Shown here: piece after piece, positions 1 to 24,811 of the stretch | Layout: each line of letters starts with the position of its first letter | Position numbering within the stretch: position 1 is the first letter of the stretch | IMG/VR virus record: IMGVR_UViG_2537561977_000030 | Location: 1 to 24,811 of that record | DNA: 24,811 nucleotides | Direction: 5' to 3' (one strand) | From: a virus | Taxonomy: Duplodnaviria; Heunggongvirae; Uroviricota; Caudoviricetes | Made by a program: the position numbers and the translations under genes | The notes under the pieces: model-generated | What the model saw: the letters and a program-made list of their open reading frames with translations, nothing else | Told to the model about the DNA's origin: nothing | Database searches by the model: none

Positions 1-581
1 TTACAACTCAGCTTGAGTTTGAAGTTCCTCTACAGGGTGATAACGATAAATCGTCGATATACCGATATCGTAAATAATTGCCAACTGTTTCCTGCTATAG
101 CCATTTTTGATCAGCCTTGCTATTTGTTCATGTTGCTCTTTTGTCAGTTTCGGACGACGTCCACCAATACGCCCCTGTGCACGTGCTGCTGCCAGTCCGG
201 CCAGTGTACGCTCTACAATTAATTCACGTTCCATTTCGGCTAAAGCCCCCATGACGTGAAAAAGAAACGCCCCATGGGTGTTGATGTGTCAATGCTGTCC
301 GTCAGACTACGGAAATTAACACCTTTTTCCCGCAATTCCTCAATAAGCGTGATCAGGTGTTTCATACTTCTGCCCAGTCTGTCCAGCTTCCAGACAACCA
401 GCGTATCTCCTTCTGATAGCGTTCTGAGCAGTTTTTTCAATCCCGGTCTGGCTGATTTCGTTCCGCTGATTTTATCTTCAAAAATCAGTTCACATCCTGC
501 GCAGTTCAGTGCATTGCGTTGTAAATCCGTGTTCTGGTCATTTGTTGACACACGAATATAGCCAATTTGCATAAAAAACAT
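1..581 (-). pseudogene. Serine DNA invertase (Hin/Gin/Pin/Cin family) split by a 1-nt frameshift
   Basis: ORF 240-581 gives an N-terminal resolvase catalytic domain (IGYIRVSTNDQNTDLQRNAL...VVWKLDRLGRSMKHL...SLTDSIDTSTPMGRFFF). ORF 1-252 in another frame gives the C-terminal part (MGALAEMERELIVERTLAGLAAARAQGRIGGRRPKLT...). Adding one A to the A5 run at 259-263 restores a continuous ...MGRFFFHVMGALAEMERE... reading, as in Gin/Pin. Confidence 0.85.
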
Positions 582-586
582 CCTCT

Positions 587-1663
587 TTGTTTCGTGAAAA
601 ATACATAGTTGGTATAGGTAGGGATAAAGACGAAAACGTTGGTTTACAGGAAACGGTAAACAAGGCTGATAACGCTGTCCAAAAGACAGGCGATACCTTG
701 TCCGGTGGACTTACTTTTGAAAACGACTCAATCCTTGCCTGGATTCGGAATACTGACTGCGCGAAGATTGGATTTAAAAATGATGCCGACAGCGACACTG
801 ATTCATACATGTGGTTTGAAACAGGCGACAACGGCAATGAATATTTCAAATGGAGACACCGCATCATTGGCACCCGGCCTAAAGACCTGATGAATCTTAA
901 ATGGAATGCTTTGTCTGTTCTTGTTGAAGCCCTTTTCAGCAGTGAAGTGAAAATATCGACAGTCAATGCACTGAGGATATTTAATTCATCTTTTGGTGCC
1001 ATTTTTCGTCGTTCTGAAGAATGCCTGCATATCATCCCTACACGAGAGAATGAGGGAGAAAATGGTAATATAGGGCCATTACGCCCCTTTACGCTTAATC
1101 TCAGAACTGGCCGGATAAGCATGGGGCATGGTCTTGATGTTACAGGGGATATATTTGCAAACCGTTTTGCAATTAACAGTAGTACCGGCATGTGGATTCA
1201 TATGCGTGACCAGAATGTTATTTTGGGACGTAATGCGGTATCCACTGATGGTGCTCAGGCTTTGCTCCGTCAGGACCATGCCGACCGCAAATTTATGATT
1301 GGCGGTCTGGGAAATAAGCAATTTGGCATCTACATGATTAATAACTCAAGGACAGCCAATGGCACCGATGGTCAGGCGTACATGGATAATAACGGGAACT
1401 GGCTTTGCGGCTCGCAAGTTATTCCCGGCAACTATGGCAATTTTGATTCCAGATATGTGAAAGATGTTCGACTTGGTTCACAGCAATATTATGGAGTGAA
1501 CAACTGGCAAACATGGAATTTTCAGTGCCCGTCAGGCTATGTACTGACGGGGATTAACGTACAGGATACCGGAAAAAACTCTGCCGATAATATTGCAGGC
1601 GTTCATTACAGGCCAGTGCAAAAGTATATAAATGGCACTTGGTATAATGTGGCGAGTATTTAA
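587..1663 (+). CDS. Alternative tail-fibre C-terminal cassette (S'v-like), silent in this orientation; the exchangeable part is about 640-1663
   Basis: Translation contains [36 protein letters not shown]... and ends [11 protein letters not shown], paralleling the C-terminus of the minus-strand fibre (INGTWYNAGSI). It starts at the crossover site and has no constant N-terminal part of its own. Confidence 0.7.
627..652. other. hix/gix-like 26-bp recombination site A (invertase crossover site)
   Basis: Plus strand AAGACGAAAACG TT GGTTTACAGGAA. Its reverse complement TTCCTGTAAACC AA CGTTTTCGTCTT shares a 14-bp arm plus core with site B at 3702-3727, in inverted orientation. Confidence 0.7.
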
Positions 1664-1664
1664 T

Positions 1665-2192
1665 ATGATGCACTTAAAGAACATAAAAGCAGGTAATGCT
1701 AAAACAGTGGAGCAGTATGAGTTAACAAAGAAGCACGGAGTCATCTGGCTTTACTCTGAGGACGGAAAAAACTGGTATGAGGAAGTGAAGAACTTTCAGC
1801 CAGACACAATAAAGATTGTTTACGATGCAAATAATATTATTGTCGCCATCACCAAAGATGCCTCCACGCTTAACCCTGAAGGTTATAGCGTCGTTGAGGT
1901 TTCTGATATTACAGCTAATCGTCGTGCTGATGATTCCGGTAAGTGGATGTTTAAGGACGGAGCTGTGGTTAAACGGATTTATACGGCTGACGAACAGCAA
2001 CAACAGGCCGAATCACAAAAGGCCGCATTGCTTTCCGAAGCTGAATCAGTCATCCAGCCGCTGGAACGCGCTGTCAGGCTGAATATGGCGACGGACGAGG
2101 AACGCACACGACTGGAAGCATGGGAACGCTACAGTGTTCTGGTCAGCCGTGTGGATACGGCAAAGCCAGAATGGCCACAAAAGCCTGAGTAA
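1665..2192 (+). CDS. Tail-fibre assembly protein, alternative copy (U'-like)
   Basis: The N-terminus [23 protein letters not shown]...[13 protein letters not shown]...NFQPDT parallels the minus-strand U-like protein. ATG lies 2 nt after the S'v stop. Confidence 0.8.
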
Positions 2193-2197
2193 AAATT

Positions 2198-2217
2198 AAG
2201 GCCCGATATCGGGCCTT
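2198..2217. terminator. Bidirectional hairpin between convergent U' and U genes
   Basis: Perfect 20-bp palindrome AAGGCCCGATATCGGGCCTT, flanked by an A-run on one side and a T-rich stretch on the other, at the centre of the invertible segment. Confidence 0.5.
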
Positions 2218-2220
2218 GTT

Positions 2221-2754
2221 TCATTCTGGTTGTTCGGGAAACGTTACTGGCAGGCTGGAGGTGTCTGTGGATTCGACCTTCTGCGCATAGAGCATCCACT
2301 CGGTTAATTTTTGTTTATTCTCGTCGGAAATAATGCCCAGCCGTAGCTGTGAGTCCCACAGCTGGGTTTTATCCCTGACGAGCTGTAGCAGGCTTTGCTT
2401 TTCATTTTCCGCTTGTTGCCTCTGCTCTTCCCCGGTATAAGTTCGCTTTATCACTACGCCATCTTTGAACATCCATTTACCTGAAATATCAGCCCGGCGA
2501 TTTGCTGTAATATCAGGAACCTCAACGACGCTTGCGCCTTCCGGATTAATTGCTGAAACATCCTTTTCAATACAAATAATAACGCCGTTGTGGTCATAGA
2601 CCATTTTCAACGTATCAGGCTGAAAGTTCTTTTGTTCCTCATACCAGTTTTTCCCATCCTCTGTATAAAGCCATTTGATGTTAAATTGCTTTGTTAGCTG
2701 GTATTGCTCTTTTGTTTCAGGATTACCAGCAGAAATGTTTTTTAAGTGCATCAT
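2221..2754 (-). CDS. Tail-fibre assembly protein (Mu U / P2 G-like)
   Basis: 177-aa ORF MMHLKNISAGNPETKEQYQLTKQ...[13 protein letters not shown]...; start is 2 nt after the fibre stop. Confidence 0.85.
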   Translation of the reverse strand: MMHLKNISAGNPETKEQYQLTKQFNIKWLYTEDGKNWYEEQKNFQPDTLKMVYDHNGVIICIEKDVSAINPEGASVVEVPDITANRRADISGKWMFKDGVVIKRTYTGEEQRQQAENEKQSLLQLVRDKTQLWDSQLRLGIISDENKQKLTEWMLYAQKVESTDTSSLPVTFPEQPE

Positions 2755-2756
2755 CG

Positions 2757-4045
2757 TTAAATACTCCCCGCGTTATACCACGTCCCATTAATGCAATACT
2801 GAATTGGCCTTGCCTGTGTTGTATCAATTAATTCATCACGGTTTCCGTTAACTGAACCCGTAACGACATAACCTGACCTGTCAGACCATCCGGGACCATT
2901 CCATGTCTGAACAGATGACAGACCGCCCAGGCGAATACCTGTAATAAACCTTGAGTTACATTCTGCCTGCGTGTATGCACCAACATCTCCCGCTGATGGC
3001 TTACGTGTTGTGGTGTAGAATTCTGACCAGTCAGCCTCAAATCCATAACCATCACGCGCTGAACGATAAAAAATACCGCCGTTCTTATAATTCACACGGA
3101 ACTGTACGGCAGGGCAACTCCCCGTATTCATATTGAAGTGGAGTATTAATGCTGTTGCGCCTTTGATATCTGCATCATAAACACCGCTATTCCAGTTCCA
3201 GCCAACAGCTTTATCATTTGCAACCCTGCTTCCTGTTTGCCCTAAAGCAAATGCAGGCTGCTGGTTTTTCGTGTTGTAGTCTCGTCGCCAGCCAGGAGCG
3301 TAAGCATCACCATGATTAATATAGGTGAATTGAGCGTTAGTGATTCCGCCGCCGCTGGACGTGCCCGGCGTGGTAACGCGTATGGTCATTGCGCCACGAG
3401 TGCCAGTAACTTCCACAACAGCACCTGCAAGACAAATATTTCCGCAACCTGTATCTGTAATGACCTTATTATTTGCATAAGCCCATGAGCCTTTGCACAT
3501 CCAGTAAGGATGGTTAAATGCCCCCTGACTCTCCAGCCACGAAATAAATTGCGCAGTTGTCCAGACCTGACTATCGCCACCAATATCCACCCATGCGCTA
3601 TATGCGCGACAGGCACCAATATTTTTGGTGAAGGTATCTTTTCCTGGAATATCTGCGCCGTTCTGGTTTTTCTGTAATGCGCCAGAAGCCTGATTTATCG
3701 CTTCCTGTAAACCAAGGTTTTTGACAAACAGCGCAGGATCAGGAATATCTGCGCCGTTCTGGTCTTTAGCCAGCTTTTCCGCCAGCTTGTTCAGTACCGT
3801 AGTCGCAAAGTTTGGATCATTACCGAGAGCGTCAGCCAGCTCTTTAAGCGTATCCAGTGTCTCAGGGGCGCTGCCTGCAAGTGCCGCAAGTGCTTTGGCC
3901 ACAAACTCCGTTGTCGCCAGCTTTTTGCTGTTATCGCCATTTGCAGGTGTAGGTGCTGTTGGTGTGCCGGTGAATGCCGGACTGGCTTTCTGTGCGTACC
4001 GGGTATGCGGGTCTGCTGCCGCGATGTGTTTCGCAAGGTCAGCCC
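2757..4045 (-). pseudogene. Tail-fibre gene, C-terminal portion (constant part to 3716, variable Sv part 3715-2757), severed from its start by the IS
   Basis: Translation has tail-fibre hallmarks (GADLAKHIAAADPHTRYAQKASPAFTGTPTAPTPANGDNSKKLATTEFV...NLGLQE...INGTWYNAGSI). The ORF in the track (2757-4169) takes its first 41 codons from inside the IS. Confidence 0.8.
3702..3727. other. hix/gix-like 26-bp recombination site B inside the tail-fibre ORF
   Basis: TTCCTGTAAACC AA GGTTTTTGACAA closely resembles hixL (TTCTTGAAAACCAAGGTTTTTGATAA) and encodes N-L-G-L-Q-E on the minus strand. Confidence 0.75.
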
Positions 4046-6087: not shown

Positions 6088-7183
6088 CGGACACCCCTGT
6101 CATGTTAAGAGTGATCGCCGTACAGTTTGCCCATTCGTTTTCTGCAACCACCCGCAGTGCCGGTGTCACCAGTTCAACCTGGTACACCCCGGAAACGGAC
6201 AATGCACTGATAATCTGGCTGGGGACAATATCGCGCCCCAGCGTGGCGGCACGTGATGCCACCCAGTTCTGTATGGCGCTGTTAGCGTTGTCCTTTACCG
6301 ACCTTGCATCCTGATCACGATAGATCGTAATCCTGGCTTCAATGGTGTAATCCACCTGAACAGGTGTTTTAGCCCGCACGGTATCAGTGAGTGGTCTGAC
6401 TTTTTCGTCAGAACAGAAACTCTCTACCAGAGTGAGGATACCGCTGTCCGGCAGACCAGTGCTGAGCAGCGGATACAGCTCGACAGTGCCGGGAGCGGGA
6501 GAAAGAACAGCGACGTCAACAATGCTGGGATGCGCCCCCATAGCATGAAAACGGTATGCACCACGGCTTCCGGCATTGGTGAATGACTCCGGGGCCAGCC
6601 TGATACGCTCCCGGAGCCGGTCATTGTCTTCCTGCTCTGAACCGCCAGAGCTGGCCGTCAGATTGGTCACCAGCAGGTCAACGTTATCAATCTCATCAAG
6701 CAACTGACTGACCTGCGCAGGTTGCCAGCCGTTGCCAGAGGTACCCGGTTCGGTACAGGTGGCCGGGGCATTGACCAGCAGCAATCCGGCCTTCAGCACC
6801 ACATCTGTATCGGTGGCAAAAATAATACTGTCGGAAGCGCTGACGCGGGTGCCTGCCGGGATCAGCACATCAATGGCCAGTGCCTCATCCACAGAGAACT
6901 GAAGTGTGGTGGTGGCAGGCTGCGCGGCAAGGCGGTATACACCAACCAGTTCTCCGAGGTAATCAATCATTGGCTCCCGGGAAAAGGCGACCAGATTCAG
7001 CTTCGCCGCCTCCTGTACCGCCACCCTGACCAGCATTTCGCGATAGGCCCACAGGTCTATCAGCAGACGTTCTGCCTGTGCCGGATACAACGTTTTGCCG
7101 GTATCCGCTTCATACTTCGCAATCATTTCTGCCGTGATTTTATCGGCATCGCGTTCAATAAAATCGGGTTCTGTCAGCGCCAT
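6080..7183 (-). CDS. Baseplate assembly protein J (P2 gpJ / Mu gp47-like)
   Basis: 367-aa ORF; position between W-like and I-like genes; J-family-like sequence. Confidence 0.75.
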   Translation of the reverse strand: MALTEPDFIERDADKITAEMIAKYEADTGKTLYPAQAERLLIDLWAYREMLVRVAVQEAAKLNLVAFSREPMIDYLGELVGVYRLAAQPATTTLQFSVDEALAIDVLIPAGTRVSASDSIIFATDTDVVLKAGLLLVNAPATCTEPGTSGNGWQPAQVSQLLDEIDNVDLLVTNLTASSGGSEQEDNDRLRERIRLAPESFTNAGSRGAYRFHAMGAHPSIVDVAVLSPAPGTVELYPLLSTGLPDSGILTLVESFCSDEKVRPLTDTVRAKTPVQVDYTIEARITIYRDQDARSVKDNANSAIQNWVASRAATLGRDIVPSQIISALSVSGVYQVELVTPALRVVAENEWANCTAITLNMTGVSDG

Positions 7184-7521
7184 AGCAGTTCCTGAGTACG
7201 GGGTTGTCCGTCTGAGCCTTTCCAGCTCACCCGGAGCGTAAGATGTTCGCCGTCGACGGCGGGTTTAACCGACATAAGCTGGCAGCGGGGTTCCCAGCGC
7301 CTGATGGCATCGACGGATTCGCGAACCACATGCGTAATGGCCCGGTCGACAGGCCAGTCGATATAAAGGTGCAGATTACTGCCGAACTCCGGGCGATGCG
7401 GGTCGCTGCCGCGGGGAGTCCGCAGGATGATCTGAATGGACTGCCGGATATCATCCAGCCCCCGGACGATTTCGCCGGGAGCCTGCAGAGCCGGTTGCCA
7501 GAATACTGAGGTCGTTTTCAT
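7174..7521 (-). CDS. Baseplate wedge protein W (GPW/gp25 family)
   Basis: 115 aa, with the ILRTPRGS...WEPR pattern typical of P2 gpW-like proteins. Confidence 0.75.
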   Translation of the reverse strand: MKTTSVFWQPALQAPGEIVRGLDDIRQSIQIILRTPRGSDPHRPEFGSNLHLYIDWPVDRAITHVVRESVDAIRRWEPRCQLMSVKPAVDGEHLTLRVSWKGSDGQPRTQELLWR

Positions 7522-7553
7522 GGGGGGCAGTATTGCCCCCGGAAGGGAACGCC

Positions 7554-8106: not shown

Positions 8107-9240
8107 TCACCGTCGATGTACTGCCATCCGGGTGATAAACCGTGAGTTTCTGAGTTTTTGTTTTTTCCCTCTTGTGACTGGCCCCCGTGCCACTTCCAGC
8201 TCGGTGGTGTAGCCGCTGTTACGCTCAAACGCATGGCGGGCAGTGGTTATGAGCCATGGCCCGGATAACTGTCCAAAGCCCACCAGTTCAATTTTGTTGC
8301 CTGCTGTCAGTTGAGGCGTTCCCGTCAGCGTCAGGGAGCCGTTCTGCTGATATTCGTTATGTCTGGCCAGTGCTGAATCCGCTTTAATCCGGGCACTGTC
8401 CGGGTCGCTGACGCGGCTGTTAACTTTAAGTGAGTCAGCGCTGGTAACCTTACCGCCTTTGAGCTTTTTGTCGCTTTCACGGGTACCACCATCAGCTTCG
8501 TAGACGATCAGTTTTTTACTGCTGCTTTTCTGGTGTTTTACCTTTGCAGATTTATAGACCCGGTTGATGGTGTCACGCAGGGAAAAGCGGGCCACATCCT
8601 GCGGTTTTAACTGCCTGACCGGCTCCTGACTGCGCAATGTGGCCAGATGAGAAAAAATCAACTGGTCACTGACCACTTTCACTGCATAACCATACCCGCT
8701 GGCCAGCCGGCGCAGAAAACCCACGTCGGTTTCAGCATACTGGGTCACCCGGTCGATTCTGATGGACTCAATGCTGCCCACCAGTTTCAGTCGGTGCTTT
8801 CTGGCAATCCGCCCCGCAACAGCTGCCAGCGTGGTGTTCTCAAAACCACGGCTGGATTTAGTCCGCAGAGCACTGTTAACCGAGGTGGCCACCCCACGGA
8901 TAGCGACAACGGACGCGGGCGAACTCACTTCGATCTCGTCTATTGAGAATGTACCGCAGGACAGCAGTTTCTCGCCCTGATAACCCATTTTCAGCGTCAG
9001 CGTGTCACCCTTGCCCGGATACCACTTATCCAGCCAGCGGCCATCGGTGTCGTCCAGCTCCACCTCAATGGTATCGGACTCATTTTTGATGTTATCGCTC
9101 CAGACCACACGGGTGACATAAGGCGCGATATCAGAGGTGATATTTTTCTGCAGATACCACAGCGTGAACACCGGCGTCAGCACCTCGCTGACGCCGGTTA
9201 ACGCTGATGTGGCTTGCGCAGTGCTGTTTATCTCAGCCAT
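8107..9240 (-). CDS. Tail/baseplate hub protein (P2 gpD / Mu gp44-like)
   Basis: 377 aa; C-terminal ...GNKIELVGFGQLSGPWLITTARHAFERNSGYTTELEV resembles the gpD family; position after X and U. Confidence 0.7.
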   Translation of the reverse strand: MAEINSTAQATSALTGVSEVLTPVFTLWYLQKNITSDIAPYVTRVVWSDNIKNESDTIEVELDDTDGRWLDKWYPGKGDTLTLKMGYQGEKLLSCGTFSIDEIEVSSPASVVAIRGVATSVNSALRTKSSRGFENTTLAAVAGRIARKHRLKLVGSIESIRIDRVTQYAETDVGFLRRLASGYGYAVKVVSDQLIFSHLATLRSQEPVRQLKPQDVARFSLRDTINRVYKSAKVKHQKSSSKKLIVYEADGGTRESDKKLKGGKVTSADSLKVNSRVSDPDSARIKADSALARHNEYQQNGSLTLTGTPQLTAGNKIELVGFGQLSGPWLITTARHAFERNSGYTTELEVARGPVTRGKKQKLRNSRFITRMAVHRR

Positions 9241-17112: not shown

Positions 17113-17484
17113 TTATTTACTGATACCGGTGATGAGATACCCGGCATCGCCACCCACCACGGCGACTTTGTAGATATCGGTATAACGGCAGTACTTCACC
17201 TTGCCGCCGGCCCCGTCGTATTTGTCTGCAACAGGCATCCCCTTACGACGCAGGGTGTAGCCGAAGGACGGCTCGTTCTCGTCCGCGCTGTCCGCCCCGA
17301 CGGCACGCTCGGTGTCATATTCCACAAAGGCGGTTTTTCCGAAGGTCGGTACACGCACGCCTTCCTTGTCCGTCAGCACGACGGGGAAAATACGTTCGCC
17401 GATGAATGCAGCATTTTTATAGCCACGGGCGATACTGGTCAGTACCGGATCAACGACACGTTTACCTTTTAAGTAATCAGACAT
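17113..17484 (-). CDS. Hypothetical 123-aa head-region protein
   Basis: ORF between the protease/scaffold and the DUF2190-like gene; no family recognised. Confidence 0.45.
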   Translation of the reverse strand: MSDYLKGKRVVDPVLTSIARGYKNAAFIGERIFPVVLTDKEGVRVPTFGKTAFVEYDTERAVGADSADENEPSFGYTLRRKGMPVADKYDGAGGKVKYCRYTDIYKVAVVGGDAGYLITGISK

Positions 17485-19289: not shown

Positions 19290-20111
19290 TTATCCTCTCA
19301 GTTCCTGTTGTGCCAGTGGCTGAAGCGTACCCTGATAGCGGGCAAGGTCGGGACGGTATGCTGCCCCCGGTGCATAAGACCAGCCGACGTCGGTGGTCAC
19401 CTTCGTGGTGCCGGTATTAAAGGTGGCCACGTTCCGCATTTCGCCGGTTTTCTCTGAGACCAGTTTCAGTTCATGGCCCATGGCAGAGCCGGAGCTGATA
19501 ACCTTCAGGCCACGGGCACGTACATCCGCCGCACTCAGGGCAATCACACTACAGCGGCAGCGCCAGCCGTTCGGCGGGTAAAATGCCTGCCAGAACGGGT
19601 CATCCCAGCGCAGCACCAGACCATGCAGCGCCAGATGGCTCCTGCGGGTATGGCTGTCGTTGATGCCGGTATACATCCAGTACGGCCTGTCGTCGACGTT
19701 TTCCATCTGTTCCGCCCAACGACCGGCGCTGTAGAGTACGGACATATTGGTGCGAAAGATGGTATCGAGCCGCCACGAACTGCCCTGCTGAATGGTGACC
19801 GGCTCACCCGTTACCGGGTCAGTCGTGTCACTCGGTCCCCACCATCCCCTGCGCTTCAGCGCCGGCTCCAGCTCCTGCCGGAACCAGCGATCGGTTTTTC
19901 CTTCATCGACAGCCTGCTGCAGTGTCCCACGAATATCTTCCAGGATATCCAGGCGGGTCACTTTAGCGACGGTAAAGGCGCGGGCATGGGCTTCCTGCCA
20001 CATTTCTTCCCAGTCCCAGGTAATCTGATACCCTTTGGACTTCAGGTAGCTGATTGCCCGCTTCGGGGGAAGCGTCATGCAGTACGCCAGTTCAGCCGTT
20101 GTCACGCTCAT
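19290..20111 (-). CDS. Head morphogenesis protein (Mu F / SPP1 gp7 family)
   Basis: F-family-like sequence. Likely ATG at 20111 with a GGGGG ribosome-binding site; the track start at 20138 is TTG. Confidence 0.75.
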   Translation of the reverse strand: MSVTTAELAYCMTLPPKRAISYLKSKGYQITWDWEEMWQEAHARAFTVAKVTRLDILEDIRGTLQQAVDEGKTDRWFRQELEPALKRRGWWGPSDTTDPVTGEPVTIQQGSSWRLDTIFRTNMSVLYSAGRWAEQMENVDDRPYWMYTGINDSHTRRSHLALHGLVLRWDDPFWQAFYPPNGWRCRCSVIALSAADVRARGLKVISSGSAMGHELKLVSEKTGEMRNVATFNTGTTKVTTDVGWSYAPGAAYRPDLARYQGTLQPLAQQELRG

Positions 20112-21108
20112 GCAGACGCCCCCAGATATTTGCCACAAAGAGAATGCGGGCCAGCCGTTCCTGCAGATCGTCCGTGTTCATCTGAGGGTAGAGCTCCGCC
20201 AGTTCGCCCAGCAGCTCAGACGGGTTAACCCCATTTTCGACCCGCTTAAACAGAGGTGCCAGGACGGGTTCCAGCGTGCCATTTAACGCGCCTCCGTTCA
20301 TCAGAATGTCCAGCGCGTCGTCAAGCTGCTGCTGAGCCTGAATATCGGCATCAATCGCCTCGGCAAATGACAGCGGCAACATGTTCTTCTCGCGTTCTGA
20401 CGGTGGTGTCTCGTCAATATCGCCGTCCTGCAGCTGGTACTCACGCTTAAAGTATTGCGGGGTCAGACGCAGACCCGCCCGGGTGAGTTTTTCGTCGCGG
20501 GTGGCACGGGTGTCATCAATGGCCTCCTGTTCCCACATGGCCCAGACCGGACACGGCACATCGCCGAAGTTCAGGGTGACCACCGTTCTGATGACCTGAT
20601 TCACTGCCGCCTGAATGATGTCCGCATCCGCATCGCGGATATCAGCCGTTACCTCCAGCCCGGCCTGTGCAGAGGCCTTGTTACTGTTCGCTTCCGTGGT
20701 CTGATTCTGACCGAGTAATGCAATGGAGATCTCACTGCGTGACAGCGTGATCAGCTCGCGGAATACCTCGCTGCTGTCCGCCTTGCCATCCGCGGCTTTG
20801 AGTTCGATGCTGCTGTCATCGGGGATGGCGGCCACCGCGTCCTCCACCATCTGCTCCATGGAGTCCAGCAGTTTTTCAATCTCTGCATCATTTGCACCCC
20901 TCGGGTGCTTACCGATCACCCACGGGGAGCCAAACTTTTCGGCAAAGCGGAGCCAGAATTTCATCCCGCCTTTCTTGAAGGCGACCGGCCAGAAGCACAT
21001 GGACAGATCCGGAAAACCGTAAGGATTGTCATAGGATGCATCCTGTGCCGGCACCACGAATTTTGACGGTGACAACAGCTCACCCTCCACACCCGCATCA
21101 CGTGCCCG
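20092..21108 (-). pseudogene. Portal protein (Mu gp29 / DUF935-type), N-terminally truncated remnant
   Basis: About 335 codons where DUF935 portals run about 500. An in-frame stop lies immediately upstream at 21109-21111, and there is no credible start or ribosome-binding site. Confidence 0.65.
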
Positions 21109-21738: not shown

Positions 21739-21955
21739 ATGGCTGACATACTCAGGGAAATCACCGCATGGACACTGATTCTTACTGGCCTGGCGACATG
21801 CCTCAGTACGGGGGGCAGCCCTGGCTGCCCTGCTGATGCACATAACAACACAGTGGTTATGGGAAAAGCTTAAAGCAGCATACAGCCTGAAAGAGCTGTC
21901 CGACGCTGTCCGGGCATGGAAACGGCAGAAAAATACCGGAGATACTGAACAATGA
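21739..21955 (+). pseudogene. Small membrane-protein gene apparently frameshifted at a G6 run
   Basis: ATG at 21739 with a GGGAGG ribosome-binding site reads MADILREITAWTLILTGLA... The downstream frame, which ends in a TGA overlapping the next gene's ATG (ATGA), is reached by removing one G from 21810-21815. Confidence 0.35.
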
Positions 21956-23067: not shown

Positions 23068-23509
23068 ACAACGTCTTATCCAGCTCATTCATATTGCCCG
23101 TAATGAACTGGGTATGGATGAAGACACCTACCGCCAGATGTTACAGGGGCTGACCGGTAAAGCCTCAACCAAAGGAATGGATACCACACAACTAAACTGC
23201 GTGCTGGAATCCATGAAAAGGAAAGGCTTTCGCGTTAAGCCTGCCGGAAAAGCCAGCTCCGGTTTACCGCTGGATAACCATCCGCAGTCCAGGAAAATCC
23301 GTGCGCTATGGCTTGAAATGGCTGCTGCCGGCATTGTTCGTGACCGTTCAGAAAATGCATTAGCGCGGTGGATCAAGCGGGAAACGGGCATCAGCGCCCT
23401 GCGCTGGCTCAATACTGAACAGGCAAGCAGTGTTATTGAGAAACTGAAGAAGTGGCAGCACAGAGCTGCGGGAGTAAAACATGAGCGACCTGAATCAGTT
23501 TCGAAGTAA
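23057..23509 (+). CDS. gemA: GemA-like protein (Mu gp16 family, DUF1018)
   Basis: MMTKQRLIQLIHIARNELGMDEDTYRQMLQGLTGKAS...MKRKGF...SRKIRALWLEMAAAGIVRDRSENALARWIKRETGISALRWL matches the gp16 family pattern; AAAGGAG before the ATG. Confidence 0.75.
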   Translation: MMTKQRLIQLIHIARNELGMDEDTYRQMLQGLTGKASTKGMDTTQLNCVLESMKRKGFRVKPAGKASSGLPLDNHPQSRKIRALWLEMAAAGIVRDRSENALARWIKRETGISALRWLNTEQASSVIEKLKKWQHRAAGVKHERPESVSK

Positions 23510-23867
23510 AGGGCCGGAACTCCTGGTGGAGCTGGCACAGCATACCTCTGAGACCGTTCGCGAGATTATTGATATTGAGCCCGAAGTTGCCGACCAGATT
23601 GGTCAGGCCGTCGCGAACCGCATGATGCAGGTCTGGGGCGGGCAAAACGTTTATTTTCCTATGGGGATGAGATGGAAGATAAGCCAGCGTGACCGTGAAA
23701 TCTATGAGGCGTTTAACGGACGTAACCACCACGAACTGTCCCGCAGATTCAGGGTTTCAGTTCCCTGGATTTACAACCTGGTGAAGCGCGTAAGAAAGGA
23801 AGAAATCAGCCGGTTGCAGGGGCAGTTATTCGAAGACGATGATGAACCGGATGACAGCCGGGATTAA
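23481..23867 (+). CDS. mor: Mor/C-family transcriptional activator (Mu middle operon regulator-like)
   Basis: 128 aa; C-terminal GGQNVYFPMGMRWKISQRDREIYEAFNGRNHHELSRRFRVSVPWIYNLVKRVRK matches the Mor/C helix-turn-helix region; directly follows the gemA-like gene, as in Mu. Confidence 0.8.
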   Translation: MSDLNQFRSKGPELLVELAQHTSETVREIIDIEPEVADQIGQAVANRMMQVWGGQNVYFPMGMRWKISQRDREIYEAFNGRNHHELSRRFRVSVPWIYNLVKRVRKEEISRLQGQLFEDDDEPDDSRD

Positions 23868-23931
23868 TCAAAAGCGAGGTGATAATGCGCTATAAAACCC
23901 CCAACAGCGCCCCCCCTGAAGAAGGCAGACC

Positions 23932-24123
23932 ATGCAGATATGGCGATGGAAATTATCCGGCATTTTTTTTGACGGTCTGACTTCTGCTGAGGCGAGATAT
24001 GTTCTCCGGGAATGCGACAGGCTGATTGACAACTCGCGCCTGCATATCGGGCCTGATGAAAATTGTGTTTTGTATTACGGGAAAGTTTTACGTAACCCAC
24101 CACCACCGCCACCAAAGTGTTAA
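23932..24123 (+). CDS. Hypothetical 63-aa ORF ending in a proline run
   Basis: ORF only; region contains C7 and T8 homopolymers and a second short ORF from 23886 in another frame. Confidence 0.25.
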   Translation: MQIWRWKLSGIFFDGLTSAEARYVLRECDRLIDNSRLHIGPDENCVLYYGKVLRNPPPPPPKC

Positions 24124-24153
24124 CGAACGTCAATAAATTCCCGGTTTATGAAA

Positions 24154-24184
24154 AGCGCAATGGATAACCTGTTGCGCTTTTTTT
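24154..24184 (+). terminator. Rho-independent terminator
   Basis: Stem AGCGCAA...TTGCGC with an 11-nt loop, followed by a T7 run. Confidence 0.65.
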
Positions 24185-24217
24185 ATTCTGGCAGAAAAAC
24201 ATATCACCGGAGGAAAT

Positions 24218-24811
24218 ATGTTTGATGCATCCTTGCTGAATCTGCCATGGGCAACGCTGGTGACGCTCACCAGTGGTTATATCGGCTATTTTATTGCGAA
24301 CGTGGGGCTGAAGAACCATCACAAACCCATTGAGGTGACGTTTTCGACGCTGATTTTTGGTTTGCTGTCAATGATGGTTTACCAGGCTGTTATGTGGGCA
24401 GGTCTGAATTCGTGGCTGGCGACACCTCCAACACTTCTTTGCGCTTTTGCATACGCTGCATTATGGAGAAAATATGGGCGTAAATGGATGTACAGATTCC
24501 TCAGAAATAAGGATATATCATGGTCTGATGATACCCCCTCTGCCTGGATGCGTATGTTTGATCAACATGGATACTATATCAGCGAGGCGTATGTCTATCT
24601 GAAGAATGGTACTGTGCTGCTTTCTGAAAATCCGGGGAAATTTGAAGGCCAGGCCAGCGGTTCTTTTGTGTTAGGAGTGGAAAAAGACATAGTGATGTAT
24701 GTCACTCATGAAAAAAACCGGGGCGCGATGAATGGATTGAAAAAGATGTTGAAAGTAAAAGCTGGGGAGCGATGGCAACCTATATCCCTGCAGATCAGAT
24801 TGCCATGGTGA
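24218..24811 (+). CDS. Hypothetical membrane protein (197 aa; N-terminal transmembrane helices plus soluble C-terminal domain)
   Basis: GGAGGA ribosome-binding site before the ATG; hydrophobic N-terminus; stop is the last codon of the window. Confidence 0.6.
   Translation: MFDASLLNLPWATLVTLTSGYIGYFIANVGLKNHHKPIEVTFSTLIFGLLSMMVYQAVMWAGLNSWLATPPTLLCAFAYAALWRKYGRKWMYRFLRNKDISWSDDTPSAWMRMFDQHGYYISEAYVYLKNGTVLLSENPGKFEGQASGSFVLGVEKDIVMYVTHEKNRGAMNGLKKMLKVKAGERWQPISLQIRLPW

Follow-up and report, generated by a model that had tools for sequence, protein, structure and literature searches.

Two short reading frames overlap around two mononucleotide runs directly downstream of mor in a Mu-like prophage, and a preliminary description of this DNA regarded them as a possibly degraded or phase-variable regulator at the position of the Mor-activated middle gene of Mu. 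Are they the remains of such a gene, or a single gene that is broken only in the deposited sequence? The DNA analysed (the window, 24,811 nucleotides in all) is 100% identical to contig ADUP01000053.1 of the Escherichia coli LT-68 draft assembly, GCA_000188815.2.

Reading frames between mor and the terminator

The window carries a BcepMu-like (Mu-like) transposable prophage, the nearest phage record to which is PhiKM, classified as Bcepmuvirus. Its late genes are on the minus strand and its early operon is on the plus strand. The 3′ end of the early operon has the order gemA, mor, orf78, terminator and membrane-protein gene, after which the element ends and different host genes are found in different strains. 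The features of this region are:

23481..23867, plus strand: mor-family transcription activator gene, intact, 128 aa (Pfam PF08765, Mor, E=5.2e-41)
23876..23881, plus strand: GAGGTG, a Shine-Dalgarno-like sequence for the 78-codon gene, 3 nt ahead of the ATG at 23885
23885..24123, plus strand: orf78, accessory gene of 78 codons in the early operon of the prophage, interrupted here by two +1 homopolymer differences
23885..23980, plus strand: ORF1, 31 aa, of which codons 1–10 are native and the rest, past the C run, are out of frame
23910..23916, plus strand: C7 run, C6 or CCTCCC in every relative, +1 in the window
23932..24123, plus strand: ORF2, 63 aa, ending NPPPPPPKC, in the –1 frame relative to ORF1
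23963..23970, plus strand: T8 run, T7 in relatives, +1 in the window
24097..24114, plus strand: (CCA/CCG)6 proline-codon repeat at the C-terminus of orf78
24150..24184, plus strand: intrinsic-terminator-like hairpin with T7 tail, directly 3′ of orf78 (14 pairs; dG –26.9, z –3.4)
24218..24811, plus strand: last gene of the element, a membrane protein, 197-aa allele here as against 214 aa in most relatives (phrog_12870, E=7e-92)

The mor gene, whose product is 100% identical to the A20 protein, is the direct upstream neighbour of orf78; it ends at 23867, leaving a gap of 17 nt (23868–23884) before the orf78 start codon. The preliminary description correctly recognised the GAGGTG sequence and the start codon, although the ATG is at 23885–23887 rather than at 23886. 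It also followed the first frame correctly through the C7 run to a stop just after the T8 run (23978–23980, 8 nt beyond it), but gave its length as 30 codons where it encodes 31 aa. The second frame is as it was described, a 63-aa ORF from 23932 in the neighbouring frame. ORF2 is in the native frame only 3′ of the T run, over 51 codons (DGLTS...PKC), the ATG and the first 12 codons being out of frame.

It had further been proposed that a one-nucleotide change in the T8 run would fuse the two frames into an ORF of about 79 codons. Insertion of one T (T9) does generate a 79-aa fused ORF, whereas removal of one T leads at once to a TGA. The product of the one-step T9 fusion carries approximately 17 out-of-frame codons, with PEEGRPCRYGDGNYPA replacing LKKADHADMAMEIIRH. 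When one C and one T are both removed from the window, the intact orf78 product MRYKTPNSAPLKKADHADMAMEIIRHFFDGLTSAEARYVLRECDRLIDNSRLHIGPDENCVLYYGKVLRNPPPPPPKC is obtained; the restored gene is 237 nt long and encodes 78 aa identical to WP_001610543.1. Since two changes are needed to recover the native gene, the one-base fusion is a chimera and not the native protein.

The region had also been described as homopolymer-rich. The window as a whole has six runs of at least 7 nt, as against 6.1 ± 2.5 expected, and four of the six fall in its last 900 nt. Of those four, two pass a length of 6 or 7 solely through the base suspected to be extra, and another forms the T-tail of the terminator.

The locus in close relatives

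The intact form of this gene is already known, being annotated as the hypothetical protein WP_001610543.1 (A0A3Z8M4N1; 78 aa) in BcepMu-like prophages of E. coli, Salmonella and Citrobacter. Its gene order is that of the window (mor, orf78, terminator, membrane-protein gene, element end), and its sequence is identical to that of the window product once one C and one T have been removed; the window copy differs from it in having C7 and T8, and hence a 31-aa and a 63-aa ORF in place of one. In each of the 11 complete E. coli genomes with this region the tracts are C6 or CCTCCC and T7, and a single ORF is annotated as a hypothetical protein. In these genomes the region spans 266 nt, or 263 nt where one CCA codon is also missing, so that the window is 2 or 5 bases longer, and alignment shows that the relatives differ from the window by exactly one C (C6, or CCTCCC) and one T (T7). 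The same state of both tracts, with an intact ORF, was found in three of three viral contigs and in one read-archive assembly. The GAGGTG sequence is unchanged across all aligned relatives, and the C run is interrupted (CCTCCC) in several of them (A33, CFS3292 and UViG_2778261204).

The intact protein forms a cluster of 26 members of 77–79 aa; the contigs of E. coli, Salmonella and Citrobacter koseri that carry it number more than 1000 (769+169+75+42...). No other contig carries either the exact 63-aa or the exact 31-aa product of the window. The range of 77–79 aa reflects in-frame copy-number variation of the proline repeat (CCA CCA CCA CCG CCA CCA), which encodes 5, 6 or 7 prolines among the relatives. 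By comparison, the run-length variants of the T tract on record are two singletons, T8 in the window and T6 in one Logan contig (P0034). As judged by alignment, the window copy of orf78 would thus be classed as a frameshifted pseudogene, since its reading frame is broken where that of the orthologues is intact. The term ‘degraded’ accordingly describes the deposited sequence when set against the intact ORF of 77–79 aa in relatives, but two changes rather than one are involved and they are probably a sequencing artefact.

A more distant relative of the gene is present in E. coli NRZ14408, where the slot between the mor stop codon and the terminator contains an unannotated 80-codon ORF (L010:1687-1929) that is 31% identical to orf78. 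This homologue aligns to orf78 in the native frame through the middle segment (E.IIRH..GL..A.AR..L..C...CVL...PP); it has CATCACCTTTGC where orf78 has CATTTTTTTGAC, and the C run is also absent. Among the close relatives, 7 of 13 variable sites in orf78 are third codon positions, and dN/dS values, which come from few sites in close relatives, range from 0.14 to 0.72. Taken together, the native-frame homologue, the third-position variation and the dN/dS values support orf78 as a real coding gene in its native frame. As the NRZ14408 homologue lacks both runs, these appear to be incidental rather than conserved devices. Comparison with orthologous regions had been suggested as a check, the doubt being that the tracts might prove fixed and the region non-coding; the tracts are indeed essentially monomorphic, but the region is coding, with a single ORF in the relatives.

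In one member of the NRZ14408 cluster (P0033) the middle 20 residues come from another reading frame, as if through a compensated double frameshift. An 89-aa antisense ORF (23864..24133, minus strand) was considered and rejected, as the diverged homologue does not conserve it.

Run-length differences in the source contig

The contig on which the window lies also contains host DNA, and 9.6 kb of this was compared with a complete genome that is 99.9% identical. Over this flank there are seven substitutions and four one-base differences; all four of the latter are in homopolymers and all are –1. They are A6>A5 in ushA, T7>T6 in ybaK, A7>A6 and A8>A7 (right of the window, at L015:16997 (ushA), 18344 (ybaK), 18396 and 18431). 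The first splits the core gene ushA into ORFs of 306 and 244 aa, and the second truncates the core gene ybaK. The frequency of discordance rises with run length, from 0 of 25 runs of 5 nt to 1 of 9 runs of 6 nt, 2 of 5 runs of 7 nt and the single run of 8 nt. None of 5072 complete genomes has the LT-68 ushA allele; for the ybaK allele the figure is 1 of 5423, the sharer being UM146.

Within the window there are six run-length differences that are seen only in LT-68, at 259, 7522, 8155, 21810, 23910 and 23963. The last two are the C7 and T8 runs of orf78; the other four, given by window position and as LT-68 against relatives, are:

259–263: A5 vs A6, in the gin-like invertase gene, frameshift
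7522–7527: G6 vs G5, upstream of the gene at 7174–7521
8155–8159: T5 vs T6, in the gpD-like gene, frameshift
21810–21815: G6 vs G5

Such a pattern, in which differences depend on run length, alleles are unique and core genes are split, is characteristic of a draft assembly with systematic homopolymer miscalling. It resembles the errors of pyrosequencing-type drafts in that one-base differences are confined to runs of at least 5 nt and become more frequent with run length, and in that the conserved genes ushA and ybaK are split by alleles unique among thousands of genomes. Assemblies of the accession series to which LT-68 belongs were probably made by pyrosequencing; a search of the literature on the LT-68 assembly and its sequencing platform gave nothing usable.

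We therefore consider it probable, from the error pattern on the same contig, that ORF1 and ORF2 are one 78-codon prophage gene that has been broken by homopolymer miscalls in the draft and not by biology. The interruption is real in the deposited sequence and most likely not real in the organism. On this explanation orf78 would be a single small coding gene at the end of the early operon of a BcepMu-like transposable prophage, translated from its own GAGGTG and ATG just past the mor stop codon, and C6 read as C7 together with T7 read as T8 in the LT-68 draft would have given rise to two overlapping short ORFs. Three observations weigh against miscalls. First, the direction of error is not uniform: the orf78 differences are two overcalls (+1), whereas those in the host flank are four undercalls (–1). 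Second, genuine homopolymer polymorphism does occur in the element. The 197-aa allele of its last gene, caused by A7 instead of A8 at 24711–24717, is also present in an independent Logan sample, ERR13498473, which holds a full-length prophage at another insertion site, and this run-length variant is therefore real. Third, the prophage is defective, so that real neutral frameshifts would not be surprising.

This third point leads to the main competing explanation, genuine pseudogenisation, in which real slippage mutations arose in a dead prophage; either alone would truncate orf78, and the second would be neutral. The window prophage is a deletion derivative that is missing approximately 13 kb of A20 (terminase, lysis, dam, repressor, ner, transposase A/B and gam). 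Its portal gene is without the first ~160 codons, and its major-head (capsid) gene, owing to an internal deletion that keeps the frame, retains 123 of 317 codons. A remnant without early promoter, repressor or transposase would not be expected to express orf78 normally or to keep it under selection, and this favours decay, as does the occurrence of real run-length alleles in the element: the A7 just described, a T6 in the terminator tail of ERR13498473, and the T6 allele of orf78 in the one Logan contig. Mutation does not, on the other hand, readily explain the length-dependent discordance in conserved host genes of the same contig, with alleles essentially unique among more than 5000 genomes. 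As a cause it would imply that about a quarter of runs of at least 6 nt were altered genome-wide, which is hard to accept unless hundreds of genes had been inactivated. It would also need two independent indels 53 nt apart within 1.3 kb that contains no substitutions; between window positions 23477 and 24811 the comparison with ERR13498473 shows run-length differences only. We regard pseudogenisation as unlikely. Under either miscalls or decay, the orf78 locus in LT-68 is non-functional or only apparently broken.

The deletion-derivative sites in the window are at 21102–21108 (junction), 17113–17484 and 20092–21108.

We think it very unlikely that the T7 (and C6) tracts are true hot spots of mutation that occasionally switch off orf78, with selection sometimes favouring the loss of its product, which would be a factor in host modulation or anti-defence.

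A related proposal, which takes up the phase variation raised in the preliminary description, is that orf78 is a phase-variable (contingency) gene in which slipped-strand mispairing in the C and/or T tract toggles a small protein. T6, T7 and T8 are all on record, and both tracts are inside the coding sequence, near the 5′ half; in contingency loci such as those of Haemophilus, Neisseria and Campylobacter, mononucleotide runs in the 5′ half of the coding sequence likewise set the frame by their length. The comparison goes little further, as the native runs of orf78 are only 6–7 nt, are not kept in homologues and are essentially monomorphic across strains. Tracts of 6–7 nt are short for efficient switching. 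Every complete genome, viral contig and read-archive assembly examined has T7 with C6 or its interrupted form, as do more than 1000 contigs by way of the intact protein, and the off-variants are singletons. The interruption of the C run by a T in several relatives, and the lack of both runs in the diverged homologue, also argue against a switch, and we consider phase variation highly improbable.

Programmed recoding, in which a –1 ribosomal frameshift or transcriptional slippage at T8 would join ORF1 and ORF2 into a 79-aa product, has next to no probability: although ORF2 is offset from ORF1 by –1, an mRNA with T9 would join the two and T TTT TTG is a slippery-type heptamer of the kind at which slippage occurs, the fused product would exchange the conserved ME.IIRH segment for out-of-frame residues, no relative has the two-frame arrangement (coding is in a single frame throughout, and the T run is missing from the diverged homologue), and no stimulatory structure was found, the sole strong hairpin being the terminator.

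The preferred reading, that of a single gene with miscalled runs, carries a more general caution. In an old draft assembly, a pair of neighbouring short ORFs at mononucleotide runs can mimic a phase-variable or degraded regulator when it is one ordinary gene with miscalled run lengths.

The orf78 product and its setting in the prophage

The product of orf78 belongs to no described family. It matched no family at E≤1 in Pfam, NCBIfam and PHROGs, it is without the PF08765 Mor domain (Pfam) that identifies its neighbour at 23481–23867 as a Mor protein, and no significant match was obtained with PADLOC or in a profile search against the PDB. It was absent from 50,697 phage records searched by tblastn, one scan of species-representative genomes found no copy, and a k-mer-indexed search of 5.8 billion proteins recovered only its own cluster. 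A full HMMER scan across 1.84 billion representatives yielded no hits beyond the T6-truncated allele, the diverged homologue and two large repeat proteins, the scores of which are inflated by repetition. An AlphaFold2 model built from three sequences is poor (pLDDT 63), with helices at residues 16–27 and 33–49, a hairpin at 51–63 and disordered ends; this model tentatively suggests a protein in which two helices are followed by a beta-hairpin and a proline-rich tail. When the model was compared with the PDB using Foldseek, there was nothing below E=2.5. These sequence and structure searches thus gave no evidence for the suggestion that the gene encodes a regulator. Our best guess is that the product may be a dispensable accessory (‘moron’-type) early protein.

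One of the large repeat proteins, the metagenome protein P0035 (1059 aa), contains many copies of a unit of ~30 residues, AIEAIKNNIPGITSEDVKKGISECF, that resembles AMEIIRHFFDGLTSAEARYVLREC in orf78 (residues 16–43; E=4.6e-6, four stretches). This resemblance may be a matter of chance inflated by repetition.

The locus was described as occupying the position of the Mor-activated middle gene of Mu. The start of the Mu middle operon (Pm, gp18/E18) is similar in that a small ORF follows mor and a T-tailed hairpin terminator is near the mor 3′ end. In Mu, though, a gap of 77 nt between mor and gp18 accommodates both the terminator and the Mor-dependent Pm, whereas in the window only 17 nt intervene and the terminator is past the ORF; Mu gp18 and orf78 show no similarity (BLASTP E=0.27). 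No promoter-like site was found on the plus strand of the 17-nt gap between mor and orf78. With a short gap of this kind, no promoter-like site in it, a terminator after the ORF and an unrelated gp18, orf78 is most simply explained as the last early cistron and not as a Mor-activated middle gene, and it is probably co-transcribed with mor at the end of the early transcript. The hairpin at 24150–24184, which is kept in A20 and NRZ14408 and has an analogous counterpart in M-17, likely marks the end of this early (mor) transcript. A search of 23400–24811 against Rfam found no RNA family.

The terminator hairpin was also considered as a Mor site for the last gene, in the manner of Mu Pm. The spacing is against this, as a dyad centred on 24166 predicts a start near 24210, which falls within the last gene's own GGAGG. 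The element has only one Mor/C-family gene, with no C gene downstream of it, and ends ~1 kb further on.

The position that orf78 occupies is not always filled by it. The M-17 type, PhiKM and KP12 have no orf78, mor being followed there by the terminator or by other genes, and KP12_299 shows no similarity to orf78. In the window the orf78 cassette is flanked by a short direct repeat, AAAAGCG, at 23870–23876 and 24151–24157. Since relatives lack orf78 and a repeat brackets it, the gene behaves as an optional insert. The sequence arrangement suggests that it may have been gained (or lost) through recombination at this flanking microhomology, the M-17 type passing straight from mor to the terminator. 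We consider orf78 a lineage-restricted orphan whose place in BcepMu-like prophages, between mor and the early terminator, is variable in content; it may be of minor use to those who catalogue accessory (moron) genes in transposable phages.

The cassette is also bracketed by a longer form of the direct repeat, TTAATCAAAAGCG / TTTATGAAAAGCG, at 23864–23876 and 24145–24157.

The membrane protein encoded by the last gene has no match in PADLOC. It shows a weak DUF6338 match and shares 30% identity with a hypothetical protein encoded at the extreme end of Synechococcus phage Ssp-JY41; its gene is possibly an end-of-genome accessory gene. At the opposite end of the window, positions 218–3773 carry a gin-like invertase gene with tail-fibre and tail-fibre-assembly genes whose identity to the invertible G/C segments of Mu, D108, SfMu, P1 and P7 is ~91%.
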